DNA from: an archaeon
GTDB lineage: Archaea > Asgardarchaeota > Thorarchaeia > Thorarchaeales > Thorarchaeaceae
Reading direction: 5' to 3'
Length of the DNA stretch: 32,000 nt
Assembly: GCA_024275415.1 (NCBI GenBank)
Contig: JAJRZD010000017.1
Coordinates: 60,001 to 92,000, forward strand
Shown: one piece after another, positions 10,224 to 27,819 of the stretch
Position numbering within the stretch: position 1 is the first letter of the stretch
How the letters are laid out: each line of letters begins with the position of its first letter
Made by a program: the position numbers and the translations under genes
Notes under the pieces: model-generated
The model's input: only the letters and a program-made list of their open reading frames with translations
Databases searched by the model: none
Told to the model about the DNA's origin: nothing

Positions 10224-10238
10224 AATGAAATTTAAATT
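10224..10238 (+). promoter_or_regulatory. Candidate BRE-TATA box
   Basis: Purine-rich AATGAAA (10224-10230) directly followed by TTTAAATT (10231-10238). A start site 25-30 nt downstream would fall at about 10260-10265, the left arm of the inverted repeat. Confidence 0.35.
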
Positions 10239-10263
10239 GCTTATATCCCCTTGTTTAAGTCTA

Positions 10264-10818
10264 TTCACCTCAAAGTTTAACCAAGATGCCTGTTTTTTTG
10301 ATACAAAAAACATGTTTCTATGGGTAGCGGGACGGTTGAGGGACATGATGGATCCAGCAAGGTTTCTTGAGGAAAGTCCGACTTTTACGAAAGGCACCGG
10401 ACAAGGGCATGCATATGAAACCGTTCGGCCTTCCGCACAGGGATAACTTTGATACATTCAATCCTAGTTCCTCTGAGCCCTCTTGTTATGTTGGTAGAAC
10501 AGGGAAAGTCTGGTGGCACTTTCAACACTGCAACAAGACAATCCTTATTGAGTTGGCGATGTTTATCTGGGATGATATCTCTCGCAAGAGCATATGACCA
10601 AACTCTTTGCTGGTCGTCCTCCCCACTTGTCGGCAACCTTATTGATAATAGGAAATTACTTCAAGTGTCCGTCTAAGGGTTGTCCATGTTTAGACAAGTC
10701 TAGCGCAGCTGTTTGCAATCTTCATTACTATAGCCCCATTACGAAATGTACTTCATCGCTTAGCCCTTAAATTGTCAGCTGTCAAAACTACCCTATCTTG
10801 GTTAAACTTTGAGGTGAA
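10264..10818. repeat. Perfect 24-bp inverted repeat enclosing 507 bp
   Basis: 10264-10287 TTCACCTCAAAGTTTAACCAAGAT is the exact reverse complement of 10795-10818 ATCTTGGTTAAACTTTGAGGTGAA. Confidence 0.95.
10322..10794 (+). ncRNA. Candidate structured RNA with RNase P-like motifs (unclassified)
   Basis: Nested end-to-end stems with G-U wobbles on the + strand, plus GAGGAAAGTCC at 10369-10379 and a CTC-GCAA-GAG tetraloop hairpin. No convincing ORF and no canonical CR-V. Confidence 0.35.
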
Positions 10819-10840
10819 ATTTCTCCAATTGGGCTATTAT
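10801..10840 (+). promoter_or_regulatory. Pseudo-palindromic site (GGTGAAA-TTTCTCC) followed by a TATA-like TATTATA, upstream of the repair operon
   Basis: 34 of 41 aligned columns are identical to 29602-29640, and the site overlaps the right arm of the 24-bp inverted repeat. Confidence 0.5.
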
Positions 10841-10995
10841 AGGGCATATAACGTCTGTTTTAATGATATGTCAAGATAAAATTTGATAATGGGGTCTATC
10901 ATAACTTATCTAACCTGACAGAGCGATGTTTTCTCTTATCGTCTCTTTTGCAAAAGTAGATACCAATTGTATGTACTATTAGTATCGAGTGAAAA

Positions 10996-11679
10996 GTGAT
11001 GTCATGTTCGAGGATTGAGGCGGCTCTTAAACGAGCCAAAGATGACCCTTCAACGAACCTTGTTGCTCTCCTACAGGACGCCCTCAAAGGAATGGACTTG
11101 GAAGTTGAAAGTGCTGAATATGTGGATGGACACTATCTCAGCGTGCTATTCAGTCTTCCAAGTAGAAACCACAGGGTTCGGGCTGAAAATGATTGGACGC
11201 CCTATGTCATAAGTGATGCACTGGACTTGATTCCGTTGGTCGCACTAATCATCGAGCAAGACCAAAATTGGGTCAAGCTCGGGGGGTTTCAATGCAGCAG
11301 CCATGGGTCTGTATATCTAGGATTCCACGAATTCACAATTCAGAAGCTAGCGATATCGTTCCATAAGACTGTCACTCGTTGGACACAATGGAAGGCTGTT
11401 CTTCGCAAGATACTTGAGGGACATTTCTCTTACGCCTTGGATTGGGACGCATTTCTCAGGGCAGAAACCGAGAAGGCCTCAATGCAGATTCCTGATTCGA
11501 TTAGGACACAAGCATACTACCACCTATTTCTCGCCTCACGTTCATTGTTTCACTCAGTTCTTACTCGACAGCAACTGGAGCATAGGGAGATCCAACGACT
11601 GCTTGAGTGGTTGAAGGTACTTCACGCCCAGTCATTGCAGGTCGAGTACAATGAAGAATATGCGGAGAGTGCAGTTTAG
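10996..11679 (+). CDS. Hypothetical protein, first gene of the operon
   Basis: 227-aa ORF (GTG 10996 or ATG 10999) ending 2 nt before the next ATG. No family recognised. Confidence 0.75.
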   Translation: MMSCSRIEAALKRAKDDPSTNLVALLQDALKGMDLEVESAEYVDGHYLSVLFSLPSRNHRVRAENDWTPYVISDALDLIPLVALIIEQDQNWVKLGGFQCSSHGSVYLGFHEFTIQKLAISFHKTVTRWTQWKAVLRKILEGHFSYALDWDAFLRAETEKASMQIPDSIRTQAYYHLFLASRSLFHSVLTRQQLEHREIQRLLEWLKVLHAQSLQVEYNEEYAESAV

Positions 11680-11681
11680 TC

Positions 11682-12131
11682 ATGCTAACGAATGAGATGT
11701 TACATAGTTACTCGACTCAGATTGGAGACCTACCGGACTTGGGATGGCTTTCAGGTTTTCTTGGTGGGTTACGAATTGTGAGAGAACGGACACCAGCTTG
11801 GCGATGGAAGCCCTTCTTCGATGATATGAACCACCTAGTCAAGGTTCTGGGAGTGAAGAAGGCAACCATGCCCGGAGAATCGCCTCCGTCGGGTACACGT
11901 CTGGCAGCCTTGGGAGGCTACATCAGCGTGACTGGCAGGATAGCGAACAATTCACTGGAGATACCACTGCCTGATTCCAAAAATGGCAGGATACGACGCC
12001 TGCTGAATTGTGAGAGGTTCCAGTACCACGTCGATAGGGTAGAGGTTCCTCTGGAACTCGTCGATGCCCTTGTTTCCCAAGTGAAACTAGATGGGCCCTT
12101 GCTAGAGCTAATTGAGGAGGCTGAACCTTAA
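11682..12131 (+). CDS. Hypothetical protein, possible degenerate LAGLIDADG-fold DNA-binding protein
   Basis: Coupled ORF. Two segments (LGWLSGFLGGLRIV and RLAALGGYISVTGRI) resemble LAGLIDADG helices lacking the acidic residues. The fold call is weak. Confidence 0.6.
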   Translation: MLTNEMLHSYSTQIGDLPDLGWLSGFLGGLRIVRERTPAWRWKPFFDDMNHLVKVLGVKKATMPGESPPSGTRLAALGGYISVTGRIANNSLEIPLPDSKNGRIRRLLNCERFQYHVDRVEVPLELVDALVSQVKLDGPLLELIEEAEP

Positions 12132-12132
12132 A

Positions 12133-13197
12133 TTGACCGACGTTGAATCCGTTAAGGGTGTAGGACCTCAGCTGGCAAAACAGTTGCGTGCAGCATTCAT
12201 CTGTACTGCTGAAGTCCTTGCAGTCCAGAACCCCGTGGATCTACAGGCTCGGTCGGGGATAACTGAAGGCAAAGTGAAGACCATCATCGAGAACGCCCGA
12301 GAACTGACAAAGCAGGGATTCTTCAAATCCGGGGCAGACGTAGAAAACGAGGAGTTAATGGCACCTCGGCTTCTTACTGGTATTAAGAAAGTAGATGACG
12401 CTCTTCTTGGAGGTATCCCTGAAGGCGCTGTCATCGAGTTCTACGGCCCCGCCAAAGGAGGCAAGACGCAGTGGTGCCATTTTCTTGCATTGCGAACCCA
12501 GCTTCCATTAGCAGAAGGTGGGCTTGATGGAAGAGTCTTGTGGATGGATACCGAAGCATCATTCAAGACTTGGATTGTCCGTGCGAATGCACTACGTTGG
12601 AATATCGACCCTAAAATGGCCCTGGGCAACATCAGAGTGGCTCGATTTGTGCACTCCTCACAGATTGAAGAAGCTTTTGACCAGCTGCCTCAGCTTATCG
12701 AAAATAATGGGATCAAGATGGTGGTTGTTGATTCGCTGTCAAGCTTGTATCGTGTAGAATACACCAAGCTGAATGACCTGAAACTACGACAGCAAAGGAT
12801 GAACTGGATACTCAATACGATGAGGCGTATCGGTCTTGCAACGGGTGTAGTCTTTGTCTATACAAATCAAGTGATGGACAAGATAGGACAGGGTGGGAGT
12901 CCGAGCATCATCAACCAACCAATAGGCGGGCACATCCTTGCTCATGGCTCCGACTTCAGGTTCTACACCACTAAGGCAGCAGGTACTGACCGTACGTTAA
13001 AGCTCCTAGATAACGCAGGTGTTCCAGCATTCCAGATGGCACTCAAATTCGGATGGGGCGGGTTCTATGACGACATTAACGAGAAGAAAGCCCACGAGGA
13101 ACGAATCGTCGAGGAGCTGAAACGAGTTGACCGATTTGGTTTTGCCCGTGCACAACGGGAGATAATCGAGGAGGCGATTGCTATTGAACCAGAGTGA
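12133..13197 (+). CDS. radA: RadA/Rad51-family recombinase (divergent paralog)
   Basis: N-terminal HhH (VKGVGPQLAKQL), Walker A GPAKGGKT, DTEASF, Walker B VVVDSL, RQQ, TNQV, PIGGHILAH. Likely start is TTG 12133 after GAGGAGG; the track start is 12112. Confidence 0.9.
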   Translation: MTDVESVKGVGPQLAKQLRAAFICTAEVLAVQNPVDLQARSGITEGKVKTIIENARELTKQGFFKSGADVENEELMAPRLLTGIKKVDDALLGGIPEGAVIEFYGPAKGGKTQWCHFLALRTQLPLAEGGLDGRVLWMDTEASFKTWIVRANALRWNIDPKMALGNIRVARFVHSSQIEEAFDQLPQLIENNGIKMVVVDSLSSLYRVEYTKLNDLKLRQQRMNWILNTMRRIGLATGVVFVYTNQVMDKIGQGGSPSIINQPIGGHILAHGSDFRFYTTKAAGTDRTLKLLDNAGVPAFQMALKFGWGGFYDDINEKKAHEERIVEELKRVDRFGFARAQREIIEEAIAIEPE

Positions 13198-13204
13198 GAG
13201 AGGA

Positions 13205-13639
13205 ATGTTCAGAATCTATAGGTGTACATCTTGCAAGTATATCGGATACGCCCAAGTCGAGAGCGAGGCTGACACTTCGTTTTGTTCATTGTGTATGGCA
13301 ATGATCGAGGACAGTCCCGAGATGCAATACGTCGCGACTGCCAATGAGGCCACTGAAGCTGTCTTGGAACTTGCCATTGAGGCTGATCTGCGGAACCCTA
13401 AATCGAAGCGGTTGATGGGACTCGGTTTCAAGAAACGGATATTCAATATCGTTGAGGGTCTCATTGACATGAATCGTGGGAGACCTGTAACACTCAAGGA
13501 GGTTTTGAAAGAGTGTGCACTGGCTGATATCTCTGTTGCGAATACTGAGCACTTCTTGGAAGTCCTACAGGTGGAAGGCAGGATCCGCATCTCATCTGGC
13601 GAGATAACCCTTGGAGGTACGATCTATGACTATGAGTGA
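13205..13639 (+). CDS. Zn-ribbon plus C-terminal winged-helix protein
   Basis: CTSC...CSLC followed by RIFNIVEGL...VTLKEVLKEC...TEHFLEVLQVEGRI, a wH pattern. Likely start ATG 13205; the track start is 13178. Confidence 0.7.
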   Translation: MFRIYRCTSCKYIGYAQVESEADTSFCSLCMAMIEDSPEMQYVATANEATEAVLELAIEADLRNPKSKRLMGLGFKKRIFNIVEGLIDMNRGRPVTLKEVLKECALADISVANTEHFLEVLQVEGRIRISSGEITLGGTIYDYE

Positions 13640-14216
13640 GCATATTCCACGCGGTGTCCACGGCAGAGAACTACTGAGCCTTACCAATCTTCTGATGCGG
13701 AACGAACCGCACAGGATTACCACTGTGACCATCGGTGAGGATAGTAGAGATCCCCCTCTCTATGTCACAACGAGCATCCAGTGGCGTCAGGATGAACGGG
13801 GAACCTATTCCCAGTTGCCTCGACTGCTCTCGTACCTTGAGGTCATGCGGGGAACCAAGGGCGTACCCATGAAGATTCCTCTGAACAAGGGGGAATCCAT
13901 GACCCTATACATCCCTACAGGGAAGTACACTTCGGACATCCCGATGGATCGGAAAGAGGCACTGCATTATTTGCGGGATCTAATACGTAAGGCTACGTCG
14001 TTTACACACGAAACCGCAAAGGAAGTCGAGAACATATTCTGGGACATTGCTCGAAAGCGAGGATTCAGCCCTGATATCGTGGACAGGATCGAGAAAGGCT
14101 CCGAAGGTTTCTCTAGTTCTGCTAACCTGTCGCGTTTCATGGGACTTGTGGAACGATACTTCTCAATCAAGTTCAGGATCCACTCAGCAGAGTCCGTTCT
14201 TCACGTGGAGGAATAG
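13626..14216 (+). CDS. Hypothetical protein
   Basis: Overlaps the upstream stop, with GGAGGT at 13613-13618 before ATG 13626/13632. No family recognised. Confidence 0.7.
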   Translation: MTMSEHIPRGVHGRELLSLTNLLMRNEPHRITTVTIGEDSRDPPLYVTTSIQWRQDERGTYSQLPRLLSYLEVMRGTKGVPMKIPLNKGESMTLYIPTGKYTSDIPMDRKEALHYLRDLIRKATSFTHETAKEVENIFWDIARKRGFSPDIVDRIEKGSEGFSSSANLSRFMGLVERYFSIKFRIHSAESVLHVEE

Positions 14217-14221
14217 CCATA

Positions 14222-16204
14222 GTGGATGCGCTAGCGTACTTCCCATATGTCCCACGGCAGTCCCAAAAGGATGCCCTCCGTCTTGCCATGGAAACCTTTG
14301 CTAAATCGACAGTGGGTATGCTCAGCGCGGATTGTGGTGTCGGGAAGACGATATCTGCCCTATCAGGGTTCCTAGCTGCACGCAATGAATCCTATGACTT
14401 TAACCTGTTGCTGCTCACACGTACACATTCGCAATCCCGTGTCTTTGAAGAGGAGATAACCGTCCTGCGTGAGAAATTCCGGATATCACACCTCACCAGT
14501 ACGACAATGGTTTCTCGGGGTCATGTGTGTCCAATCCGCAACCAGATTGAAGGAGAGTCGAACCGAGGATTTCTCAGGGCATGCGGTATGATGATTCGCA
14601 GCCACAGGTGCAGTCACTACTGGGATTTCTATTCTCGTAGCCGTGAGGAAGGGAAAGCAGTCCCCTCTGAGTTCGCTATGATTGTCATAGAGTCTCTCTT
14701 AGATATGGGAGTAGTCAATGTTGACCGGATTGCCGAGCACACAGATGCAGTAGGCATGTGTCCATACGAGGTACTCAGGTGGTGCGCTCGAAAGAGCAGG
14801 GTCGTCATCGGTCCGTACTCCTATCTGTTCAAGGAACGTGTCAGGAAACCTTTCCTAGCCTCGTTACACTGGGATCTCCCCGCAGTCGATGTGGTCGTGG
14901 ATGAGGCACATAATCTTCCGGATCATGTCCTTGAGGCTGAAACAGCGAAACTGACAGGAGCCGAGGCATCTTGGCTGATTTCCAACAAGGTGATGCTTGT
15001 CAAGGAAACTGGCATTGAATGGCTAGGAGAGGCCATCGATTTCGTATGGAACACCTTCCTTTCACATGCTGATGAGCTCTTCATGAAGCAAAAGGAGGTC
15101 GTGCTCAGGTCATGGGATGTGGTTCCCCGCTTCATGGATCGCAAAGAACTCGAGGCCCTTCTCAGCAGGACTGAGGTGACTGAGATTGAGGATAGCATCC
15201 CTACTGAGACCCCACTGGACAGGTTTGTCGAGCTTCTATTTTCTGGTGTCAGGGCAGGAGAGAGTGACGATTGGCACATCACTCTTGAGGAAATGCATCG
15301 ATGGAAGGGATACAATGACATCGCGGACACCAAGATAGTTATTCGCCCACTTAATGCAGCTGGCATCATCGCACCTGTCCTACGAACAGCTCGTGCTTCT
15401 CTGCTGATGAGCGGAACCTTGAGACCCACATCACTATATAGTCGTCTCATGGGCGTGCAGGGCGCACTTGAGGAGGACATCACAAGCCCCTTTCCTCGTG
15501 GAAGTCGCATGGTGCTTCTTGAGCAGGAGTTGAGTACGAAGTATACCGAGCGTGGGACGGATTTGTGGAGGAAAATAGCTGGACGAATTGAAACTGCATT
15601 GCAGGCCATGCCTGCAGAGAAGTCCGCCCTTATCGCGTTCCCGAGCTATAACACCATGCAACAAGTGCTCAGCTTCAACATCGACACGGGATACAGGCAA
15701 CGTGTTGTCGAAGAGCGTGGTGCGAAAATCGAAGAATTGATGGAACTCATCATACAAAAGCCCTGTGCTATTTTCCTAGTGTTTGGCGGGAAGTTCAGCG
15801 AAGGTGTTGATCTCGTCCAAGATGGTAGGTCTCTCGTGGATTTGATAATAGGTGTTGGTATCCCGTTCAGTCCTCCCACGCGATACCAACAGGCGTTGCA
15901 AGAGTGGTACGACAAAAGGTTTGGCGAGGGCACTGGTTATTATTACTCGTCAGTAGTCCCCTCTATCCGGAAGGTCGTTCAGCTTATCGGACGGCTCCGA
16001 AGGTCTCCAGAGGACTCTGGGGTTGTCATGCTAGTGGATCGTCGTTTTGGGAGGCATATCAAGATGTTTGGTAAGGGTATCGAGTCTGACTTGTGGCCTT
16101 ACAAGACCGATGAGGAGATTCGATATGCTATCAAGATGTTCAATCAACTTAGGCAGGAGAGTGTAAGAGAGAATGGAACTCCAACAGAATGTTTGGGATG
16201 TTAG
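14222..16204 (+). CDS. xpd: XPD/Rad3/DinG-family Fe-S 5'-3' DNA helicase
   Basis: Q-motif PRQSQ, Walker A ADCGVGKT, four Fe-S cysteines (HVCP, RACG, HRCS, GMCPY), DEAHNL, SGT, GKFSEGVD, GVGIPF, QLIGRLRR. Confidence 0.92.
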   Translation: MDALAYFPYVPRQSQKDALRLAMETFAKSTVGMLSADCGVGKTISALSGFLAARNESYDFNLLLLTRTHSQSRVFEEEITVLREKFRISHLTSTTMVSRGHVCPIRNQIEGESNRGFLRACGMMIRSHRCSHYWDFYSRSREEGKAVPSEFAMIVIESLLDMGVVNVDRIAEHTDAVGMCPYEVLRWCARKSRVVIGPYSYLFKERVRKPFLASLHWDLPAVDVVVDEAHNLPDHVLEAETAKLTGAEASWLISNKVMLVKETGIEWLGEAIDFVWNTFLSHADELFMKQKEVVLRSWDVVPRFMDRKELEALLSRTEVTEIEDSIPTETPLDRFVELLFSGVRAGESDDWHITLEEMHRWKGYNDIADTKIVIRPLNAAGIIAPVLRTARASLLMSGTLRPTSLYSRLMGVQGALEEDITSPFPRGSRMVLLEQELSTKYTERGTDLWRKIAGRIETALQAMPAEKSALIAFPSYNTMQQVLSFNIDTGYRQRVVEERGAKIEELMELIIQKPCAIFLVFGGKFSEGVDLVQDGRSLVDLIIGVGIPFSPPTRYQQALQEWYDKRFGEGTGYYYSSVVPSIRKVVQLIGRLRRSPEDSGVVMLVDRRFGRHIKMFGKGIESDLWPYKTDEEIRYAIKMFNQLRQESVRENGTPTECLGC

Positions 16205-16391
16205 GAATCAGATCGTCAAAGTTTCGGCTGGAGGAGCGGTCGCTATCGTGCTGACAATGATACTAGGCATTGTTGCAGTGATGGTTCTTGGAATCATCAT
16301 GCTATGGGCATTTGGGGCACGCTTGACGCTTCGTGGGATGGGCGGCACTATCGATTACGAGTCGATACAACAACGTGGTGACATCTTGTGA
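16173..16391 (+). CDS. Small membrane protein
   Basis: 72 aa with a ~30-aa hydrophobic stretch. AGGAGAG upstream, and its TGA overlaps the next GTG (GTGA). Confidence 0.6.
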   Translation: MELQQNVWDVRNQIVKVSAGGAVAIVLTMILGIVAVMVLGIIMLWAFGARLTLRGMGGTIDYESIQQRGDIL

Positions 16392-16981
16392 AGATAATGG
16401 ATTCGTCGGCTCTCAGGTGGTCGATCCCCATCTCATTGGCTAGCGCGTGGGGAATCAAGGTGGCATTAGACGGCTCCCCAGATGTTCTCCTACAGAGTGT
16501 CATCGGGACTGCTGCACTTCTCTTGGTGGTCATGCTTGTCATCAGGAACAGAGGAACCACCCGGATTTTCTGGGACGCGGAGAGGAGCCTACTGGCAATT
16601 GTCAGGACATGGACAATCGAGGTCAGCGCGGGACGCATGATAGAGAGCATACCCACCGAGATTGATCTCTCCCACAACAGCAGACGGGTCTTGGTCGCCA
16701 TGGGTGCACGGTATGAAGACGAAGAAGGCGGCGAGCTGACGTTCTCTGTCCTGCGCCCCCTTGAGAGCGCACCTACGCTCATGGGGTTTGTTGTTTCACG
16801 AAAGAAGATGAGGATCGTCCGCGACTATGTGGATATGCAGTGCTTGGCCGATATGGTCACCAGTGACTCGCAGGTTCTTGAAAGTGCTATGCGAGCATCA
16901 TTCTATCACACACCAATTTCAGTGGCTACCGCCGAGACCTTGGTGAGGATGAAGTCTGGAGGGGTCGCTCTTGCTCGGTAG
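16388..16981 (+). CDS. Membrane protein with two N-terminal hydrophobic segments
   Basis: WSIPISLASAWGIKVAL and VIGTAALLLVVMLVI followed by a soluble domain; coupled to neighbours on both sides. Confidence 0.7.
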   Translation: MKIMDSSALRWSIPISLASAWGIKVALDGSPDVLLQSVIGTAALLLVVMLVIRNRGTTRIFWDAERSLLAIVRTWTIEVSAGRMIESIPTEIDLSHNSRRVLVAMGARYEDEEGGELTFSVLRPLESAPTLMGFVVSRKKMRIVRDYVDMQCLADMVTSDSQVLESAMRASFYHTPISVATAETLVRMKSGGVALAR

Positions 16982-17237
16982 TGATGTGATCTACCTAGAG
17001 ATTCCATCATCCCTTCCCCTCCCCTCACTGATGGAGTCCCTTGCGATCGGACACGGCTACCAATGGACAGTCCTCGTAAAGACGCCCAAATTTGTTGCGT
17101 GGGGCAAGACTTCGATGGGGCCCGAAACTGAAGTACTGATCATTGGCAGACAGATGGTTCTGCAAAGTCAGCCCGCTATGGGTGAGCGGATGAAGCATCT
17201 AATCAAGGTGCTGGCGAGAAGGAGGAAACAGCGATGA
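16971..17237 (+). CDS. Small hypothetical protein
   Basis: TTG start after GGAGGGG; stop overlaps the next ATG (ATGA). Confidence 0.6.
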   Translation: MLGSDVIYLEIPSSLPLPSLMESLAIGHGYQWTVLVKTPKFVAWGKTSMGPETEVLIIGRQMVLQSQPAMGERMKHLIKVLARRRKQR

Positions 17238-21750: not shown

Positions 21751-21751
21751 A

Positions 21752-23452
21752 TTGACAACATCAGACGAAACAGAGGTTATTGCAAAGGAGGCTACGGCCG
21801 AGGACGAAAAGGAAGCGCCAACAAACATGATTGTAGGGCTTCTCGAACGAACAGGACACAAGACCCACATCTATTCGAACGGTATCATTGCAGCCCTTCG
21901 ACTGGAGGGCATTGAGGGAACGAGAGGGGTTCATGTGGACATCGTGTTCATCGTGGACTGGGATTTAGGAGCGTTCACTGGAACCAAGATGGGTACTCAG
22001 GCTGTGCTCCTTGAGATTGTCAATAGAAGCACAGACTCGATTCTCAGGGACTTCGGCTACGGGGATAGGTATTGTACAATATCAAAACGCACGCTAAAAG
22101 GCAATGTTTGTATTGACACCCTGTGTCCAGATCTCGGAAAACAGGGAAGTGTTATCCATGCCACTCGCACAGTTTACGTGGTCTACGAGGAGCGAAGACC
22201 AGGGATGGATTTGTCGTGGTTGACTGAGGAAGCCCGTATCCTTCCAAAGGAGGATTTCATCGTAGCACGTGAGAGCGATATACGAAGCCACAGACCTGAA
22301 GTCCAACGTCGGGTCGCTGAGGAGAAATGGACCTTCCTCAGCCGCGGGCTGGTGTTCCTCTATGGGATGGCTTTTGCATCGGTTTTTACGATATCGAGTT
22401 TGGTCGGTCTTCTTGTGGCGTTCATCAACGCGAATGGTATAATGATCCCATTGGCTGGATTAGTGGTTGGTGCCGTCCTCTCACTCGGCACCGCTTATCT
22501 ATCGATAACCCATATCTCCCAGTTCAATAGAGATCTGGAATCGGAGAGGCAATCGCTTTCCAAAATCGGGGATACTGCAAGAGTCGAGGCCAGTGCCAGC
22601 ACCAGCAAGGACACGTTAGACCTGCTAAGAGACCTGTCCTTTGTGGTTTCGCCACTCATGGCTGAAGTCGGAGGGGCAATCCGTATTGGCGATACCGAGG
22701 GGGCCGCTGAAACAGCGAACCTCATCATTGATGAAGTAGTCCGGCTCTCACCTCATTCAGTGAAGATGGGGGATGAAGGCATCTCCAAGTTCATCGGTAT
22801 GTTCACGTCGCAGGATCCCGAGTGCGATGTGGGTGAGCTCTCTCTCTGTTATTCTTCACTCACTGGGCACATCACTAATCCGCTAAGCGAGGAAGATGTC
22901 CTGCGCAATTGTACCGTGCTGCTCAATTCATTGCATAGGATCGGAGGAGTCCGCACCGAGGTGAAAGAAACTGTTGACAATATGATGAATGAACGCTCGA
23001 TGAAAGCAGCATTAGCAGAGATTCGCAAAGAGATGGATGTGCCGGTACAAGAGGAGCCCTCTCAGGAAGACCTCCCTGTTGGTGCCGATGATGCAGACAT
23101 CAACTTGTTGAAAGAGATGGACAAGGAGGCTGAGGAGATTACCCCTGACGAGCCCTCAGAAGTGGTCGAGACCGCCAAAGATGCTTTAGACACAGCACAT
23201 CCCGAAACAAAGGATCATCCCCATTCAGAGGAGGACGATACAGCAGCCAGTGACCAACCGGACTCTGGGGAGGTGATTGACTTCGTAGAAGTGGAGGCAG
23301 TGACAGTGGAAACGATTGAGGTCACTCCTTCCGTGGAAATCACAGCAGCCGATGTCATAGACCAATCCAAGAAAGAAGCAGTAATGTATGCAAACTCAGG
23401 ACGTGACAACTCTCGTCCTGAACGGAGGAGGAAGGCAAAGAGTGCAGCATGA
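21752..23452 (+). CDS. Membrane protein: soluble N-domain, two TM helices, helical domain, acidic tail
   Basis: Hydrophobic LVFLYGMAFASVFTISSLVGLLVAFI and IPLAGLVVGAVLSLGTAYLSI; D/E-rich C-terminal region ending in RPERRRKAK. Likely start TTG 21752 after GGAGG; the track start is 21722. Confidence 0.75.
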   Translation: MTTSDETEVIAKEATAEDEKEAPTNMIVGLLERTGHKTHIYSNGIIAALRLEGIEGTRGVHVDIVFIVDWDLGAFTGTKMGTQAVLLEIVNRSTDSILRDFGYGDRYCTISKRTLKGNVCIDTLCPDLGKQGSVIHATRTVYVVYEERRPGMDLSWLTEEARILPKEDFIVARESDIRSHRPEVQRRVAEEKWTFLSRGLVFLYGMAFASVFTISSLVGLLVAFINANGIMIPLAGLVVGAVLSLGTAYLSITHISQFNRDLESERQSLSKIGDTARVEASASTSKDTLDLLRDLSFVVSPLMAEVGGAIRIGDTEGAAETANLIIDEVVRLSPHSVKMGDEGISKFIGMFTSQDPECDVGELSLCYSSLTGHITNPLSEEDVLRNCTVLLNSLHRIGGVRTEVKETVDNMMNERSMKAALAEIRKEMDVPVQEEPSQEDLPVGADDADINLLKEMDKEAEEITPDEPSEVVETAKDALDTAHPETKDHPHSEEDDTAASDQPDSGEVIDFVEVEAVTVETIEVTPSVEITAADVIDQSKKEAVMYANSGRDNSRPERRRKAKSAA

Positions 23453-24128
23453 TCACATCGAGCATCTGATCAACGACGGTGGGATTATCCATCTCTCTGG
23501 AGAGCCCTTCTCGGGAAAGACTCGACTAGGGATACACTTTGCAGCAAAGGCATCTCAGTCCGGACATGTGATATGGCTGTGCGCAGACGGAAAGACCTCA
23601 TTCGTCGAGGACTTGCGAAAGAACATCACAGCGAGTCAGGGAGTGGTATCTAATTTGGAATTGATCTTTCCGAATGGACATGAAGAAATCTACGAGTCTC
23701 TTATGACGATCCATAGTTTCCTTAAGGATGATACAATTCTGGTCGTCATTGACCCCATCACCCGAGCTATTGACCTTGGCAGAAGATATGACGATGAGAT
23801 GTGGGGACGAGAATTGTTCGAAGACGTTCTTCCAAGCCTTGTCGGGCTGGCCATGGGGAATGAACTATGCATCGTGTTCACAAGTGAAGTACGTATGGGT
23901 GAAGGGGGTGCTACCCGTCCTGTGTTTCACAAGAAGCTCACACAGTGGGCTGATGTAGAGATACACGCAGAACGTGCCATGACGATGACCTATTCTCACC
24001 TTACTCTCAGAAGGTGTAATAGTGAACCAGCAGATTTTGGCATCATGCGCATCAAGAATGGACTTGTCACTATTGATGTAAGTGGTCAGGAGGTGCAGGA
24101 TTGTTCGGAAAGCTCGTGTTCCGTCTAG
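23442..24128 (+). CDS. radB: RadB-like RecA-fold paralog
   Basis: No N-terminal HhH domain. Walker A GEPFSGKT, Walker B LVVIDPI, VFTSEV. Likely start GTG 23442 after GGAGGAGG; the track start is 23388. Confidence 0.7.
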   Translation: MQHDHIEHLINDGGIIHLSGEPFSGKTRLGIHFAAKASQSGHVIWLCADGKTSFVEDLRKNITASQGVVSNLELIFPNGHEEIYESLMTIHSFLKDDTILVVIDPITRAIDLGRRYDDEMWGRELFEDVLPSLVGLAMGNELCIVFTSEVRMGEGGATRPVFHKKLTQWADVEIHAERAMTMTYSHLTLRRCNSEPADFGIMRIKNGLVTIDVSGQEVQDCSESSCSV

Positions 24129-25036
24129 CCAAGTGGGGTGTGATAGGCGCGTTCGCGTTGATAGCGGGCGTCTATTTCATTTCGTCCGTGTCAGGCATAG
24201 TCGTCCAGACTAGGACTGGCAACTTGCTACCGTTCGTGAGCCTTGCGGTGGCTGCATCACTACTTGTATGGGTGTCGGAGAACAAAGAGATAGAATGGAA
24301 GATTGGCGCGCTCATCCTGAAGGTACTCTCAGGATTCTCGGCAGTGTTCTTCCTCCTCACACTCTTCCTCTTCTTCGCCCCGAACATCATCTTAGGAATC
24401 GTTGCTGCACTAGGCGGGCTCTTTTATCTTGCAATGCTTTCGAACCCAAAGTCCTTTTCTAGAATGATGGACTCGTCCTATGCCTTCTCTGGTGGGCTTG
24501 GCCCCATTACCCCTATCAACTATGAGCGTGCAGTCCATGCATTCAAGCAGCATGTACAGGCGTATATGATAACACCTGCACAGACAGACACTATCATCAC
24601 CCATCTCAAGGACCGCCCCCAGCTCCCAATCGCTATCACGCGCTTCGAAGAAACAGATATCCTGTATATCCAAGAGAAGTCCGAGGTGACCACCCGGATC
24701 CTCTCTCTGCTAGAACTCGCTGCTGTCTCACCAGCGCCACCGTTCCTCACACATATAGTCGTGGCACTTCCACTGATCGAGAATGAGAACGGGTTTGCTC
24801 TCTCGGAATACCGGATTGTGGACGACCAAACAGTCGTCGAGAGGTTGCTGACAAATCTTCCACTTCGAACCACTGTCATCCCGCACCAGAACGGGCCCCG
24901 ACTCATTATCCCTGAAGAGCATATCATCGGGATGGACGCCAAGACGATTCCACGTAGTCACCTCTTCAGGGCAGTAGTGATGAAAAATATCAGGGGATTG
25001 GAACCCTCCATGGAGGTCGTGCATGTTGCCGATTGA
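24101..25036 (+). CDS. Membrane protein with about four N-terminal TM helices and a soluble C-domain
   Basis: Four hydrophobic stretches in aa 1-115; TTG start after GGAGGTG. Confidence 0.75.
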   Translation: MFGKLVFRLAKWGVIGAFALIAGVYFISSVSGIVVQTRTGNLLPFVSLAVAASLLVWVSENKEIEWKIGALILKVLSGFSAVFFLLTLFLFFAPNIILGIVAALGGLFYLAMLSNPKSFSRMMDSSYAFSGGLGPITPINYERAVHAFKQHVQAYMITPAQTDTIITHLKDRPQLPIAITRFEETDILYIQEKSEVTTRILSLLELAAVSPAPPFLTHIVVALPLIENENGFALSEYRIVDDQTVVERLLTNLPLRTTVIPHQNGPRLIIPEEHIIGMDAKTIPRSHLFRAVVMKNIRGLEPSMEVVHVAD

Positions 25037-25760
25037 GGGTGTGTCACTGGATGAGATCGAGGTCTGCTTGCAACCTGTCGTACGCCTGCTTCCAAGGAGG
25101 CTCGACAGGACGCTTGGGGCATTGCTGTTGCCCAGACAGATATCGGTACTTCATGGTGCCGAACGGGCTCCTCTGAGTATTATTGCTCACGGAGTCACTG
25201 TGTCCAGTCTTCGTCAGAAAAAGGACGCTCGTGTTGTGTTCCTTGACAGTGGTAGCAACTACAAACCTAGAACCATCAGGAACCTGTGTAAGATGATGGG
25301 CATTTCAGGGGACGATATCAAGCGGATCGTTGTGGGAAAAGTACTTGACCTTTACAACCTTGAGCGGATGGTCGCGCAAGTCAAAGGTATGCATGACGTT
25401 ACAGTGGTCATTCTTGACAATCTGACCTCCACCCTTAACAAATCATTTCCTCCCGGAAGCAAAGGACGACAGAGGCAGTTATTCCAGACCCTAGAAGATT
25501 TCAGGGATCTAGTGAACGAGATCGGATGTCACTTGCTCATCACTGACCATTCTTCTGTTGACTGGAACTCTGGTGCTAGAACTCCCGTCGGAGGAAATGT
25601 ATTAGCCCATGCTGTCGACACTCTGGTGTCTGTGACCGTCATCGATTCACATGAACATCTGGTTTCGCTCCTTGTGGAACAGACCCCGGTCACACCGATG
25701 CCAGCAGGATGTGTGCTGGTCGTAACAGTGGATGGGATACGCACAATAAAGGGGGCCTGA
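25023..25760 (+). CDS. Rad51/RadA-paralog-like RecA-fold protein with degenerate Walker A
   Basis: VVFLDSGSNY, VVILDNL, RQRQL, LLITDH and PVGGNVLAHAVD match the RecA core. The Walker A position reads GAERAPLS (no GKT). Confidence 0.7.
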   Translation: MLPIEGVSLDEIEVCLQPVVRLLPRRLDRTLGALLLPRQISVLHGAERAPLSIIAHGVTVSSLRQKKDARVVFLDSGSNYKPRTIRNLCKMMGISGDDIKRIVVGKVLDLYNLERMVAQVKGMHDVTVVILDNLTSTLNKSFPPGSKGRQRQLFQTLEDFRDLVNEIGCHLLITDHSSVDWNSGARTPVGGNVLAHAVDTLVSVTVIDSHEHLVSLLVEQTPVTPMPAGCVLVVTVDGIRTIKGA

Positions 25761-25768
25761 GAACAGAC

Positions 25769-26764
25769 ATGGGCGTGCGCAAATGGGACTTCATCCAGTG
25801 GGAACTTGCAGACCTTGACGAGATACGACCACGGGTAATGGCAATTGATACCCCGAACTACATCACTCGACTGACACAATCGTATGTATATCATCAGAAA
25901 CGGAGGGATGCAGAACGGATTCCCACGCAACATGTCTGGGCTGTCCTCGGGATAATAAGACAGGCACTACGACATGGCTTCACTCCGGTATTCGTCTTTG
26001 ATGGGCCACCAGAAGCCTTGAAACGCCCTCCCAATCCTGAGCTGGTTTCGTCAGCGACGGAGCTGTACAGGAAGTTTCGTGAACATAATGACATCTACAA
26101 CTCGCGATTGGCAGAAGCACTCAACGATAGCAAGGCTATGCAATGGTATTTTGCAGTCAACCACTTGAAGGATCTGTTCAAGGCCATTGGCATCCCTTCA
26201 TTCACCGCACCAAGTGAGGCAGAGATGGCAGCTGCGGTTATGGTAAGTGATGCAACTGCCGGCACTGTTGTCACGAATGACATCGATGCACTCCTTTTCG
26301 GGGCACCCCATGTGACCAGGGCAGTCAAGTTCGCTAAAAAACAGATCGAGAGGGTATACCTGAATGATGTGGCGGCAGGGCTCAAGACAGACCTAACTCG
26401 TCTCAGAGACCTTGCAATCCTATGTGGGTGTGACTTCTATCCGAGTGGCATCAAGGGCATCGGCCCCCGCAAGGGACTGGCTCTCCTCAATCAACACGGA
26501 AACCTAGAGAGAGTCCTAAAGGCAAGGGGACTCCCCCCAAATGAACGGGCAACAATCCTCGATGCTAGGGCAGTCTTCGACGAACCTATGTTCCTCCAGT
26601 TAGATGGAATCCCCTCCTCGATAAACCCCCCCTTAGTGTCCCGAGTCAGCGAACTGTTACGCCCCGTCATGGGGAAGGAACGTGCAAAGAAAACTACAGA
26701 AGAACTGGTCAAACTCTGGAAAGAGTTCGGTCGAGAGCAAGTCACATTGGAGAGGTGGACATAG
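25769..26764 (+). CDS. fen1: FEN1/XPG-family structure-specific nuclease
   Basis: MGVRK N-terminus (ATG 25769), AID, VFVFDG, APSEAE, NDIDALLFGAP, H2TH LCGCDFYPSGIKGIGPRKG, and C-terminal PIP-box-like QVTLERW. Confidence 0.9.
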   Translation: MGVRKWDFIQWELADLDEIRPRVMAIDTPNYITRLTQSYVYHQKRRDAERIPTQHVWAVLGIIRQALRHGFTPVFVFDGPPEALKRPPNPELVSSATELYRKFREHNDIYNSRLAEALNDSKAMQWYFAVNHLKDLFKAIGIPSFTAPSEAEMAAAVMVSDATAGTVVTNDIDALLFGAPHVTRAVKFAKKQIERVYLNDVAAGLKTDLTRLRDLAILCGCDFYPSGIKGIGPRKGLALLNQHGNLERVLKARGLPPNERATILDARAVFDEPMFLQLDGIPSSINPPLVSRVSELLRPVMGKERAKKTTEELVKLWKEFGREQVTLERWT

Positions 26765-26961
26765 TGGACAGGCGTATGGTTCTCCCCGAAGATGCATTGA
26801 ACTCTCCTATTATCGAGTCTGTGTCAAGTCCTTGTGTCGCCTGCATACACTATACCTACTTTGGTTGTACTCTTGGACACCCTTGCGCTAGAAAGGTCGT
26901 ATGGAACGCAATCCAGAGGAGGATCGATTCAAATGAAAAAGAACAAGACCGAACTATTTGA
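26755..26961 (+). CDS. Small Cys-rich protein
   Basis: 68 aa with CVAC-x7-C-x5-C; overlaps the FEN1 stop. Confidence 0.5.
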   Translation: MDIVDRRMVLPEDALNSPIIESVSSPCVACIHYTYFGCTLGHPCARKVVWNAIQRRIDSNEKEQDRTI

Positions 26962-27079
26962 TATCAGGCAAGAATATGGGACAGTGCTGAGAAAGCATAT
27001 GCATAGTTCAGGCACTATCACCCAAAACACCCGGACGGTGAGAGTGGCATCTAGCATGAGGGTGGAGGTGGACGAATGA
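26933..27079 (+). CDS. 48-aa microprotein
   Basis: ATG 26933 preceded by GAGGAGG (26916-26922); TGA overlaps the XPF ATG (ATGA). This is the 3' part of track ORF 26834-27079. Confidence 0.45.
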   Translation: MKKNKTELFDIRQEYGTVLRKHMHSSGTITQNTRTVRVASSMRVEVDE

Positions 27080-27819
27080 GTATCGCAGACGACATCATCA
27101 TCAATGACTTGGAGCTTGAGATGATCATCAGGGACTGTCCTCAGAACAGGATCATTTACGATTCACGAGAGAGCTCAGACTACATCACAAAGCTTCAGGC
27201 AATCCTTGTCAACGAGGGGCTTGAGTGGGAGCGGATAATGCTGCCTATTGGGGACTATATAGTCAATGGGACAGTGATTGAGCGGAAGACCCCAGAGGAT
27301 TTTTTGAACTCGATTTATCCTGTTCCGCGTCTGAATAACCAGTTGGTTCATATGTCAAGGAATTGTGCAGAGTCCGTCATTGCTATCATCGGTAATCCCT
27401 GGGCCGCCACTGGACAAGATCCAGTACGAGAAGCCATCGTTTCATCCGCGCTCGCGAGTATCTGGAAACGGAGGGCCGCTGATGGTGTTAGAGGGATTGT
27501 CATCCCCCAAGTGTTCTTGCCTCCTGATGCCGACAGGAGGTTCGCACTTTGGCTGAAAGCGCTCAGTAGGAAGGAGCCGGTCAGAGAGCTCAAGTTGAGC
27601 AGAGGTGCGACAAGTGGTGGAAACCAGTTAGTGCGGACTGTGTCAACTGTGCCCGGATGGGGTGTTGAGCTGTCCCGAAGAGCATTGGAAGCGTTCGGTA
27701 CACTCAAGATGCTGATTGACGCGTCTCCCTCGGATTTGAGCGAGCGTATTGATAATGTTGGATCAGCCAAGGCTAAGATATTCCATGAATTCTTCAGAAG
27801 GCCTTACAATAATAGTTAA
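27076..27819 (+). CDS. xpf: Short XPF/Mus81 (ERCC4) nuclease with tandem HhH
   Basis: GDYIV, IERKTPEDFLNSI...RLNNQL, then two HhH motifs (VPGWGVELSRR; IDNVGSAKAK). No helicase domain, so not Hef. Confidence 0.9.
   Translation: MSIADDIIINDLELEMIIRDCPQNRIIYDSRESSDYITKLQAILVNEGLEWERIMLPIGDYIVNGTVIERKTPEDFLNSIYPVPRLNNQLVHMSRNCAESVIAIIGNPWAATGQDPVREAIVSSALASIWKRRAADGVRGIVIPQVFLPPDADRRFALWLKALSRKEPVRELKLSRGATSGGNQLVRTVSTVPGWGVELSRRALEAFGTLKMLIDASPSDLSERIDNVGSAKAKIFHEFFRRPYNNS

Follow-up and report, generated by a model that had tools for sequence, protein, structure and literature searches.

Bacterial natural transformation brings together ComEC, ComFA, DprA, RecA, RadA/Sms, and ComM. In archaea, the Ted loci of the Thermoproteales contain homologs of VirB4, VirB6, and VirB2 that co-localize with Rad50 and HerA, which the authors of that work read as DNA import coordinated with recombination (PMC9905601).

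Here we describe a Thorarchaeota operon that shares features with these systems. Like Ced and Ted (CedA/A1/A2/B and TedA/B/C; PMC9905601), it is chromosomal and domesticated, and encodes a membrane-anchored VirB4/HerA-class protein beside small and polytopic membrane proteins. Ted loci, like this operon, adjoin homologous-recombination genes (Rad50 and HerA). Unlike Ced and Ted, the operon encodes a VirB4-fold protein without a working P-loop, and carries its own RadA, XPD, Hel308, and FEN paralogs along with two further RecA-fold proteins; moreover, profile and fold searches detected no VirB6/CedA channel or VirB2/CedA1 pilin homolog among its membrane proteins. The host is an Asgard archaeon, whereas the Ced/Ted paper makes no mention of Asgard archaea.

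The likeness to bacterial transformation is one of logic. By analogy, the proposed machine would also combine a membrane entry point, a DNA-pulling helicase, and a recombinase with a dedicated loader, as well as branch-migration and trimming activities. However, the components are non-homologous except for the RecA-fold recombinase, and no ComEC-like channel was recognized in the operon. The archaeal HerA-NurA/Mre11-Rad50 end-resection operon likewise encodes a HerA-class ring with recombination enzymes, but a Pfam domain scan found no NurA, Mre11, or Rad50 here; moreover, HerA is a soluble, active translocase, whereas this ring protein is membrane-anchored and its ATPase dead. Finally, a Hel308-family helicase encoded with RecA-fold paralogs, one of them lacking Walker A, may be likened to HELQ/BCDX2 (PMC13623763), and the SWIM-type zinc motif in the same operon module to the Shu complex of SWIM protein and Rad51 paralogs. 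These likenesses are of make-up, and there are differences: the helicase itself carries the SWIM-type motif as an insertion, and the archaeal module is tied to membrane proteins.

Gene content and second-copy enzymes

The window analyzed is a stretch of 32,000 nucleotides; the source genome is a Thorarchaeota MAG. An ORF survey places the operon at 10996-27819, with about 19 overlapping genes, all on the + strand (Table 1). Between neighboring ORFs there is either an overlap or a gap of no more than about 10 nt (ATGA or GTGA overlaps occur at 16388, 17234, 19570, and 27076, for example), which bears out the one-strand, tightly packed operon of the original prediction. Hydrophobic segments are present in m7, m8, the VirB4-like amino terminus, m13, and m15.

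Table 1. Features of the operon and its downstream flank (positions in the window)
Position	Strand	Feature	Basis
10996-11679	+	u1, first gene, 227 aa, new family	syntenic orthologs
11682-12131	+	u2, 149 aa, new family	syntenic
12112-13197	+	RadA2, second-copy RadA recombinase, N-terminal HhH	Pfam Rad51, HHH_5
13178-13639	+	Zn-ribbon + winged-helix (Zn-wH) protein	Cys residues, MCM-like wH
13611-14216	+	u5, 201 aa, new family	always between Zn-wH gene and XPD2
14222-16204	+	XPD2, second-copy XPD/Rad3-type Fe-S helicase	DEAD_2, Helicase_C_2, HBB
16173-16391	+	m7, 72-aa single-pass membrane ORF	one TM segment
16388-16981	+	m8, two TM helices + cytoplasmic alpha/beta domain	AF2 model
16971-17237	+	s9, small 88-aa protein	syntenic
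17234-19573	+	VirB4/HerA-fold pseudo-ATPase, 779 aa	AF2 model, Foldseek
19570-21750	+	Hel308-type Ski2-like helicase, SWIM-type CxC...CxH insertion	DEAD, Helicase_C, Helicase_dom4_arc
21722-23452	+	m13, 576 aa, new family	alignment A2
23388-24128	+	RadB/KaiC-like RecA-fold ATPase with Walker A	weak AAA_25, KaiC matches
24101-25036	+	m15, new family	alignment A6
25023-25760	+	Rad51/RadA paralog without Walker A	Pfam Rad51 41 bits
25709-26764	+	FEN2, second-copy FEN1/XPG-type flap nuclease	XPG_I 61.6 bits
26755-27079	+	two overlapping micro-ORFs, mp18 (26755-26961) and mp19 (26834-27079)	
27076-27819	+	short XPF (ERCC4 + HhH)	ERCC4 32.5 bits
27844-29550	-	convergent 568-aa gene, no known family	conserved neighbor
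29768-31998	+	210-aa membrane protein + Prenyltrans-type alpha-alpha-toroid repeat protein	Pfam Prenyltrans

The RadA, XPD, Hel308, FEN1, and XPF proteins of the operon are divergent second copies, as had been supposed. Their canonical counterparts are encoded on other contigs: RadA on C116, XPD on C10, FEN1 on C123, and Hef/XPF and Hel308 elsewhere in the genome. RadA2 matches Pfam Rad51 (165 bits) and HHH_5; canonical RadA scores 316 bits against 166 for RadA2. Catalytic motifs are intact: Walker A and B in all 32 RadA2 orthologs; Walker A, DEAH, and the Cys cluster in all 40 of XPD2; and, in FEN2, acidic active-site residues invariant with canonical FEN1. In the Zn-wH protein, residues C16, C19, C36, and C39 are invariant, and the carboxyl-terminal half weakly matches MCM winged-helix domains.

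A tree of the RecA-fold proteins places every RadA2 sequence of the operon outside the canonical Asgard RadA clade (clade support 99/99), and the RadB/KaiC-like protein, which has Walker A in 34 of 34 orthologs, in a clade of its own. The Rad51 paralog, originally called ATPase-dead, lacks Walker A in the source genome; the motif is present in only seven of 38 orthologs. A literature search found no published description of the operon. A second RadA clade was already published for some Asgard lineages, without gene context (Matsuo et al. 2025, PMC12722695). In that study, genomes encode RadA paralogs set apart from their own canonical RadA, as RadA2 is here. Neither Thorarchaeota nor operons or gene neighborhoods figure in the paper, and RadA2 is here likened to its clade rather than equated with it.

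Domains and the CxC...CxH motif bear out the identification of the Hel308-SWIM helicase, but in the source genome a TAA in the reading frame, at 19900-19902, breaks its gene. None of the 41 orthologs checked is interrupted, and their length is about 730 aa; all 41 have motifs I and II and CxC...CxH, and 40 have motif III. The SWIM-type insertion is absent from canonical Hel308, and is also found in helicases adjoining VirB4-like genes of five other families.

The VirB4/HerA-fold protein and its predicted partner

The 779-aa protein consists of an amino-terminal TM helix, an N-domain, a VirB4/HerA fold, and a carboxyl-terminal winged helix (AF2 pLDDT 78.6). Foldseek matches include TrwK/VirB4 of R388 (2e-13) and HerA (9e-12), with a TM-score of 0.71 for the VirB4 carboxyl-terminal domain. 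The fold thus confirms the original VirB4/HerA-like call, and the ATPase motifs prove degenerate. The P-loop reads GGxxx(E)R, with an invariant R333 at the Walker A Lys position; the glycine-rich loop is lost, and GK[ST] is absent from this site in every relative examined. Lacking both the Walker A Lys, replaced by Arg, and the glycine-rich loop, this protein cannot be the motor. It is a catalytically dead protein of the VirB4/HerA type that would form a ring.

The m8 model (AF2 pLDDT 84) resembles secretion chaperones and YbjN only at Z about 8. In other Asgard families, the gene immediately upstream of the VirB4-like one encodes a homolog of m8 (hhalign probability 58-79%). Complex prediction pairs m8 with residues 1-275 of the VirB4-like protein at an ipSAE of 0.73, against 0.00 for the best control; this mark is met by 58 of 80 solved complexes and by two of 110 mismatched pairs. 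Partner pLDDT does not fall below 79, nor contact agreement between runs below 84%. Thus, m8 is the predicted partner of the VirB4-like protein.

The other membrane proteins, m13 (an N-domain, two TM helices, a helical C-domain, and an acidic tail) and m15 (four TM helices and a 170-aa carboxyl-terminal domain), match nothing in PDB profiles or Atlas. Most of the predicted protein mass is cytoplasmic, with no obvious trans-envelope structure.

Conservation in Thorarchaeota and other Asgard archaea

The 15-gene core, u1 to FEN2, has the same order in about 48 Thorarchaeota species and 15 of 16 genera; the VirB4-like gene itself is found in 15 of the family's 16 genera. Order is kept in dozens of genomes at 25-60% protein identity, more than chance would allow. 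Throughout Thorarchaeota, the membrane genes are co-conserved with the enzymes. Several core members belong to new families. No match was found for u1 or u2 in Pfam, NCBIfam, or PDB-profile searches, for s9 in Pfam or NCBIfam, or for u5 in PDB profiles. Most Thorarchaeota loci have a u1 ortholog (22-31% identity) in the corresponding place; u2 retains synteny along with invariant Trp and Gly positions; and s9 retains synteny at 27-44% identity. Only 11 relatives of u5 were found among 5.8 billion proteins; it is kept even in Asgard family f2.

The flanks are also conserved. Upstream, 28 loci have a GH3-family gene. Downstream, 35 loci have the convergent 568-aa gene at the same place; it has no Pfam match and is a possible, though uncertain, member of the system. 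The membrane protein and Prenyltrans-repeat protein beyond it are kept downstream in Thorarchaeota loci. The repeat protein has an amino-terminal hydrophobic segment, and similar proteins adjoin the cluster in two other lineages. This pair is a possible surface component of uncertain membership. The operon is present in single copy per genome, within the chromosome in closed genomes. Conserved core order and flanks indicate vertical inheritance of a chromosomal locus rather than a mobile island. (One closed Thorarchaeota chromosome lacks u1, u2, and RadA2. Together with the Hel308 stop codon described above, this means that the full set is not indispensable.)

Some of the genes originally counted as members lie, by these comparisons, outside the conserved system. 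The loci of other genomes end at FEN2. The short XPF has no ortholog in 85 related genomes of the family, and it is most similar to the nuclease domains found in canonical Hef proteins (about 780 aa; 30-37% identity); it is an add-on specific to the source genome. A small hydrophobic ORF like m7 is present in four close loci only, and elsewhere XPD2 abuts m8 directly; m7 is a lineage-specific insertion. The microproteins overlap in different frames: mp18 has relatives in a few close genomes, whereas mp19 has none in the Thorarchaeota loci compared. Both are lineage-specific.

The Thorarchaeota operon is real, but the system is not confined to it. In nine Asgard families (f1, f2, f8, f9, f12, f15, f24, f25, and f27), no more than about 10 kb separates a VirB4-like gene from Hel308-SWIM. 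The same neighborhoods often include RadA2 or RadB-like genes, nucleases of FEN-like or PLD type, an HhH membrane protein, multi-TM proteins, and the m8 family. Judged from these neighborhoods, a smaller core recurs in the nine families: the VirB4-like protein, its m8-family partner, and Hel308-SWIM. Outside Thorarchaeota, variants of the locus bring in additional multi-TM proteins, together with an HhH membrane protein and a PLD nuclease.

A candidate machine for DNA at the membrane

The reading that we favor, at a probability of roughly 0.4, is that the operon encodes a recombination machine, anchored in the membrane, for handling DNA that arrives there, by analogy with Ced/Ted import or bacterial transformation. 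Such a machine would sit at the cytoplasmic face. Its scaffold would be the ring-forming VirB4/HerA-fold protein, bereft of its ATPase P-loop, fixed in the membrane by its TM helix, equipped with a winged helix for DNA, and joined by m8; s9, m13, and m15 would be further membrane parts. Around this scaffold would gather two helicases of opposite polarity (XPD2 and Hel308-SWIM), active RadA2, two RecA-fold accessory paralogs (one with and one without Walker A), Zn-wH, and FEN2. DNA reaching or crossing the membrane, from another cell or from outside, would be received by the scaffold, then pulled and unwound by the helicases in place of the dead VirB4-type motor. RadA2, loaded with help from the paralogs, would pair the incoming DNA with the chromosome, after which flaps would be trimmed. 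In Thermoproteota, the parallel is Ced/Ted import with subsequent recombination; in bacterial transformation, it is ComFA-DprA-RecA-RadA. We infer DNA transport and its direction, as well as any physical assembly that goes further than the predicted m8 pairing.

The main rival, itself rather unlikely, is a membrane-tethered repair or fork-restart complex without DNA transport: a specialized homologous-recombination or crosslink-repair pathway (XPD, the HELQ relative Hel308, RadA with paralogs, and FEN) on a platform that happens to be membrane-bound, for example to act on membrane-attached chromosomal DNA. All identifiable enzymes are indeed of repair or recombination type with intact motifs, the VirB4/HerA-fold protein is catalytically dead, and nearly all predicted domains are cytoplasmic. 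Moreover, human HELQ binds the RAD51 paralog complex BCDX2 (PMC13623763), so a Hel308 beside RecA paralogs fits a pure recombination-control module. However, housekeeping copies already cover repair, and this explanation accounts neither for the strict co-conservation of four to five membrane proteins and a VirB4-type scaffold with the enzymes in nine families nor for the multi-TM, HhH membrane, and PLD nuclease additions outside Thorarchaeota.

An improbable alternative is a donor-side or domesticated conjugation-like apparatus, which would export chromosomal DNA, or go back to an ancient integrated conjugative element, rather than import DNA. The best structural matches include the VirB4 protein of R388, from its conjugative type IV secretion system; the VirB4 fold is preceded by a fused TM helix, a VirB3-like arrangement; and the 22-kb contig carrying one variant from outside Thorarchaeota belongs to a genome of eight contigs. 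Yet Pfam and NCBIfam scans of the operon proteins name no relaxase, coupling protein, or integrase, and both the family-wide constancy of flanks and position and the single chromosomal copy weigh against this origin. The chance is slighter still that the operon serves anti-plasmid or anti-virus defense, with helicases and nucleases, coupled to a membrane sensor, breaking down DNA as it enters. HerA-fold rings do partner with effectors in SIR2-HerA and DUF4297-HerA systems, both among the structural matches, and Hel308-like helicases (HamB) act in Hachiman, whose HamB models match the helicase core. But the PADLOC matches are to generic helicase core (the DinG model scores canonical XPD at 317.6 bits vs 252.4 for XPD2), none of the seven scanned proteins without known family matches a defense model, the locus shows synteny and vertical descent instead of a patchy pattern, and an active recombinase with mediator-like paralogs is no defense signature. 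A chromosome-segregation or dimer-resolution device at the division site is very improbable: the 779-aa protein, with its succession of TM, linker domain, P-loop fold, and winged helix, resembles the membrane anchor, HerA/FtsK-class ring, and carboxyl-terminal winged helix of FtsK, but its dead P-loop makes DNA pumping impossible, it is matched best in structure by VirB4 and HerA, not by FtsK, and a Pfam domain scan finds no Xer-type recombinase in the operon.

For the favored recombination machine, a damage-induced role in DNA exchange or uptake is plausible by analogy. The operon thus points to an undescribed machine that would handle DNA at the cell membrane.

The operon and its second-copy enzymes

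The genome under study is a 3.5-Mb Thorarchaeota MAG, 93% complete, in which the window spans C119:60001-92000. As the original prediction had it, the operon is compact and single-stranded: all of its sizeable ORFs lie on one strand, with neighbours that overlap or stand a few bases apart (table). Pfam recognises the repair enzymes that had been read from the sequence alone: a RadA-type recombinase (RadA2), an XPD helicase (XPD2), a Hel308/Ski2-like helicase, a Rad51 paralog, a FEN1/XPG nuclease (FEN2), and a short ERCC4 nuclease; the RadB/KaiC-like ATPase is recognised weakly. The other operon proteins belong to no Pfam or NCBIfam family, and five of these contain hydrophobic segments. Two ORFs that had been listed as separate microproteins overlap each other.

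Features of the window and of the operon within it
Feature	Position	Strand	Evidence or remark
Two tandem multi-PAS histidine kinases	1-4732	-	
Region upstream of the operon	10083-10995		AT-rich; 39.5% G+C vs ~50% within the operon
Perfect inverted repeat	10264-10287 / 10795-10818		24 nt, enclosing 507 nt
Operon	10996-27819	+	
RadA-type recombinase (RadA2)	12112-13197	+	Pfam Rad51 165 bits (cut-off 22), HHH_5
XPD helicase (XPD2)	14222-16204	+	DEAD_2, Helicase_C_2, DEAH box, Fe-S cysteine cluster
Membrane protein m8	16388-16981	+	
VirB4-like 779-aa protein	17234-19573	+	
Hel308/Ski2-like helicase (Hel308-SWIM)	19570-21750	+	DEAD, Helicase_C above cut-offs; Helicase_dom4_arc 20 bits, under cut-off 27
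Membrane protein m13	21722-23452	+	
RadB/KaiC-like ATPase	23388-24128	+	Weak Pfam match
Membrane protein m15	24101-25036	+	
Rad51 paralog	25023-25760	+	Pfam
FEN1/XPG nuclease (FEN2)	25709-26764	+	XPG_I 61.6 bits (cut-off 24.9)
Short ERCC4 nuclease	27076-27819	+	Pfam
Convergent 568-aa protein	27844-29550	-	No known family
Prenyltrans-type repeat protein	30397-31998		N-terminal hydrophobic segment

Neither Rfam (gathering thresholds) nor ARAGORN found RNA genes in the window, and a promoter and terminator scan did no better than on shuffled sequence, the scan being of bacterial type and not meaningful for an archaeon. Within the inverted repeat just upstream of the operon, a piece of ~65 nt (roughly 10653-10720) has at least 14 further occurrences in the genome, at 74-89% identity, and matches neither tRNA nor Rfam; the element (10264-10818) is perhaps a small dispersed repeat, or else a miniature mobile element. 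The two large histidine kinases, of 734 aa and of 800 aa (the latter ORF extending past the edge of the window), have no relation to the operon.

Whole-genome family searches found a canonical copy of each repair enzyme elsewhere, so that those in the operon are second copies, as had been supposed. Canonical RadA (contig C116) scores 316 bits vs 166 for the operon copy, and canonical XPD (C10) 110 vs 68. Canonical FEN1 and a 774-aa Hef/XPF lie on C123, a further ERCC4 protein on C127, and a canonical Hel308 of 792 aa on C43. Five other Asgard genomes all contain canonical RadA (318-350 bits), and four of them the operon type too (183-250 bits). In a maximum-likelihood tree of 29 RecA-fold proteins, with no eukaryotic sequences and midpoint rooting only, the canonical RadAs form a short-branched clade (99/99 support) that leaves all operon RadA2 proteins outside; the RadB-like proteins and the Walker-A-less paralogs each group apart. 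A further RadB-like gene, with one in-frame TGA, is found ~2 kb from canonical XPD (C10:8000-27999, region L075).

A second RadA clade has been described in Heimdall-, Njord-, Gerd-, and possibly Lokiarchaeia, in a study that mentions neither Thorarchaeota nor gene context (PMC12722695). Assuming the same clade, the operon probably provides that context.

Catalytic motifs are widely retained: Walker A and B in RadA2 (32/32 orthologs); Walker A in the RadB-like protein (34/34); and Walker A, DEAH, and the cysteine cluster in XPD2 (40/40). FEN2 has all the invariant Asp/Glu active-site residues in common with canonical FEN1. In the Zn-wH protein four cysteines are invariant, and the C-terminal half shows a weak match to MCM winged helices. 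Only 7 of 38 orthologs of the Rad51 paralog have Walker A, and the copy in this genome lacks it. Motif conservation across orthologs indicates that the system is under purifying selection.

The Hel308-type helicase retains motifs I and II and the CxC...CxH insertion in 41/41 orthologs, and motif III in 40 of them. The SWIM-type CxC-x(n)-CxH signature is common to the 41 orthologs and to helicases of five other families; no Pfam SWIM match was seen at E <= 0.01. By its motifs the protein is a Hel308/Ski2-like helicase. The gene is not intact in this genome: an in-frame TAA (19900-19902) falls between motifs Ib and II, whereas all 41 other copies checked are continuous, at ~730 aa. The stop reflects either a genuine nonsense mutation of recent date or an assembly consensus error.

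The VirB4/HerA-fold protein and its membrane neighbours

The product of the VirB4-like gene had been called VirB4/HerA-like. Among solved structures, a profile built from 12 orthologs picks out HerA-class ATPases weakly (E 0.007), and language-model features lead to DUF87/HerA/TrwB clusters, one of them CedB. Foldseek confirmed the fold on an AlphaFold2 model (mean pLDDT 78.6, from a 42-sequence alignment): TrwK/VirB4 from the type IV secretion system of R388 (2e-13) and HerA (9e-12) rank highest, and the C-terminal domain of Thermoanaerobacter VirB4 aligns with a TM-score of 0.71 (rmsd 3.8-5 A). HerA scores nearly as well as VirB4, and the modelled fold fixes only the class. The protein is laid out as a short N-terminal tail, one long TM helix, an alpha/beta N-domain, a P-loop domain, and a C-terminal winged helix.

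The nucleotide-binding site is degenerate. At the Walker A position stands GGSIANRR here, and relatives from Thorarchaeota and six other lineages have GGxxx(E)R, with an invariant arginine (Arg333) at the lysine position and the glycine-rich loop lost; GK[ST] occurs at the P-loop position of no relative examined. Walker B acidic residues are unconserved in the Thorarchaeota proteins. Because the Walker A lysine is replaced, the glycine-rich loop gone, and Walker B unconserved, all within a VirB4/HerA fold, we conclude from motifs and model that the protein would be a pseudo-ATPase: a scaffold, not a motor.

Which proteins accompany this putative scaffold? The model of m8 (pLDDT 84) shows two TM helices followed by an alpha/beta domain, for which Foldseek gave no significant match. 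A wide VIA fold search returned secretion-chaperone and YbjN folds at a middling Z of about 8; the comparison with the VirB4 N-terminal region gave Z 6.4, inside the tool's stated noise range. A VirB8-like NTF2 fold was not borne out by these fold searches. Complex prediction paired m8 with residues 1-275 of the VirB4-like protein at ipSAE 0.73, vs 0.00 for the best control. That mark is reached by 58/80 solved complexes and 2/110 mismatched pairs, counts that are only rough here because our own alignments were used in the prediction. Partner pLDDT is no lower than 79, and the agreement of contacts from run to run is 84% or more; in the predicted interface the TM helices pack together and the edge strands of both domains pair. 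The prediction supports, without showing it, binding of m8 to the VirB4-like N-terminal region.

Two further membrane proteins form new families: m13, with an N-domain, two TM helices, a helical domain, and an acidic tail; and m15, with four TM helices and a C-domain. Sequence and feature searches (Pfam, NCBIfam, PDB profile, Atlas) gave no usable match for either, VirB6/CedA-like channel proteins included. By predicted topology, nearly all of the protein mass of the membrane module is cytoplasmic. As regards a VirB2/CedA1-like pilin, the sole small hydrophobic ORF of the operon, m7, encodes one TM segment and is lineage-specific. Profile searches against solved structures yielded nothing usable for u1, u2, u5, m13, and m15, and hhalign found no relation of u5 or m13 to the unknown proteins of clusters outside Thorarchaeota.

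Conservation in Thorarchaeota and across Asgard archaea

A first search, of 36 family genomes, found single-copy orthologs of the 779-aa protein in 26, at 33-46% identity. In a wider sample the protein is present in 53 of 85 family genomes (15/16 genera), and genomes without it are mostly incomplete MAGs. The neighbourhood is likewise conserved, membrane genes included. Wherever the contig allows (twelve 20-kb regions and 48 further loci) the order is constant: u1, u2, RadA2, Zn-wH, u5, XPD2, m8, s9, VirB4-like, Hel308, m13, RadB-like, m15, Rad51 paralog, FEN2. The last of these ends the operon in nearly all loci. The short ERCC4 (XPF) nuclease, originally counted as a member, drops out: it has no ortholog in 85 family genomes, its closest relative being the nuclease domain of canonical Hef (30-37% identity). 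A small hydrophobic ORF like m7 occurs in only four close loci.

The flanks recur as well. Upstream is a divergent GH3-family gene (28 loci); downstream come a convergent gene of ~570 aa (35 loci), a 200-aa membrane protein, and a Prenyltrans-type repeat protein. The convergent protein, which belongs to no known family, keeps ~26% identity at this site across the Thorarchaeota loci. Because gene order and flanks are conserved, the operon is read as a vertically inherited chromosomal locus, not a mobile island.

One closed Thorarchaeota chromosome (L019 / L045) is without u1, u2, and RadA2; unrelated genes on the opposite strand replace them, and the Zn-wH gene is cut short at the zinc ribbon, making this a naturally occurring partial deletion of the operon. 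A genome of the sister family (f2) retains RadA2, Zn-wH, u5, XPD2, VirB4-like, and Hel308. A pattern scan of all GTDB species, which used Thorarchaeota-specific peptides and is blind to spread beyond Thorarchaeota, matched a 2130-bp contig labelled as a Desulfuromonadales bacterium (L063). This carries a fragment of a Thorarchaeota VirB4-like gene (45% identity), and the contig is most likely mis-binned.

Profile search revealed VirB4-like relatives in 128 of 400 Asgard genomes, from many families. Short forms of ~530 aa are without the N-terminal part (f24, f12, f15, f27, f7, f8); long forms reach 1250-1300 aa (f9). Directly upstream of the short forms is a gene for a membrane protein of 250-357 aa. 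These proteins constitute one family (pairwise E 1e-22 to 1e-44). Its relationship to m8 has an hhalign probability of 58-79%; a weaker one links it to the N-domain of the VirB4-like protein of Thorarchaeota. Recurrent neighbours of the Asgard VirB4-like genes encode a Hel308-like helicase, RadA2 or a RadB-like protein, and FEN-like or PLD-type nucleases, together with an HhH-domain membrane protein, membrane proteins with M28-peptidase domains, and other multi-TM proteins. The CxC...CxH insertion is present in all six neighbouring helicases examined (five other families plus f2), and absent from the canonical Hel308 of our genome.

For linkage, the same 400 genomes were searched with the C-terminal half of the helicase, and coordinates were compared with the VirB4-like matches. 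The tally is by family instead of by genome, since genomes that are related are not independent samples. In nine families (f1, f2, f8, f9, f12, f15, f24, f25, f27) no more than ~10 kb separates the two genes. That they stay linked over such deep divergence is our strongest evidence for cooperation between scaffold and recombination enzymes.

A profile search of the full protein library, which is without taxonomy, yielded 105 cluster representatives at E <= 1e-30, in length classes of about 775, 530, 820-850, and 1250-1300 aa; the four contexts inspected resemble the Asgard variants. Among clusters outside Thorarchaeota (L077:8876-9811; L079:5046-7184; L097:15654-16520; L095:12547-14931) are a PLD-type nuclease, an HhH_5 membrane protein, a CoiA-nuclease-like protein, and a second HerA_C-like protein. 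A large Prenyltrans-type alpha-alpha-toroid repeat protein is found near the VirB4-like/Hel308-SWIM cluster in three separate Asgard lineages (in the window, L073:18282-19952, and L098:553-4566); the proteins of the window and L073 resemble each other only at the repeat level. The repeat protein may contribute to the system at the cell surface, or may simply be a conserved neighbour.

Roles and precedents

Together, these comparisons establish a conserved operon in which second-copy enzymes, catalytically intact by their motifs, are inherited together with a putative membrane-anchored VirB4/HerA-fold scaffold and membrane proteins. By analogy, we infer that the machine would act on DNA at the membrane, and that this DNA most likely comes from outside or from another cell. 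In place of the dead ring, XPD2 (5'-3') and Hel308 (3'-5') would act as motors; RadA2 and the paralogs would serve loading and strand exchange; and FEN2 would trim flaps. Two observations count against this reading: no channel or pilin homolog was recognised among the operon proteins, and some genomes have an operon that lacks parts or contains broken ones.

In its full form, this reading envisages a dead VirB4/HerA-type membrane ring that recruits a SWIM-bearing Hel308, a dedicated RadA, and Rad51-like paralogs, coupling cell-to-cell DNA exchange to homologous recombination. Such a machine, lineage-wide in Asgard archaea and hitherto unrecognised, would be the prokaryotic equivalent of the HELQ-RAD51-paralog and Shu modules and a possible precursor of eukaryotic machinery for sexual recombination. 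We give the whole of it about one chance in five.

The main rival is a membrane-tethered complex for repair or recombination control, without transport. It accommodates the enzyme set and accords with the known HELQ-BCDX2 interaction (PMC13623763), but leaves the conserved membrane proteins unexplained. Anti-phage defence is less probable, and was rejected: PADLOC matches only the generic helicase core; the canonical XPD control outscores XPD2 on the same model; none of the seven unknown-family proteins scanned matches a PADLOC model; and the synteny of the locus also speaks against it. Origin from a mobile element (integrated plasmid, virus, or ICE) likewise scored lower: it is disfavoured by the chromosomal position, the same flanks in 28-35 loci, and a single copy across 15/16 genera, and a recent mobile island was rejected on account of the flanks; no integrase domain was found in the window.

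For a DNA-exchange machine, the closest precedent is the Ted system of Thermoproteales, in which homologs of VirB4, VirB6, and VirB2 are encoded beside Rad50 and HerA genes, and whose authors proposed coordination of import with recombination (PMC9905601). Like the Ced and Ted DNA-import systems, the operon encodes a VirB4/CedB-class ATPase fold; unlike theirs, its protein has no functional Walker A/B. Bacterial transformation follows the same logic as that proposed here, with unrelated parts. A HerA-NurA / Mre11-Rad50 resection module was considered and set aside: no operon protein has NurA, Mre11, or Rad50 domains, and the P-loop is degenerate. In the literature outside subscription-only papers, no description of the operon was found, in keeping with the original view of the arrangement as undescribed; nor did that literature yield any account of a SWIM-type insertion in a Hel308, or of Asgard VirB4-like systems. 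We class the operon with VirB4/HerA-based membrane systems linked to recombination, with a real chance that it is categorically new.

No known prokaryotes are more closely related to eukaryotes than Asgard archaea, whose modes of DNA exchange and recombination bear on how sex and the eukaryotic recombination toolkit arose. Second RadA copies, until now seen only in trees, here acquire a conserved gene context. Human HELQ and BCDX2 had already shown Hel308 paired with RecA paralogs; the pairing, an old link, is conserved in Asgard genomes, and here the module is tied to a VirB4/HerA-class membrane scaffold. Seven families without recognisable relatives (u1, u2, u5, m8, s9, m13, and m15) are now defined as targets for structure and biochemistry. 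If the DNA-exchange reading is true, the operon would be a directly testable candidate for a gene-transfer apparatus of Asgard archaea.
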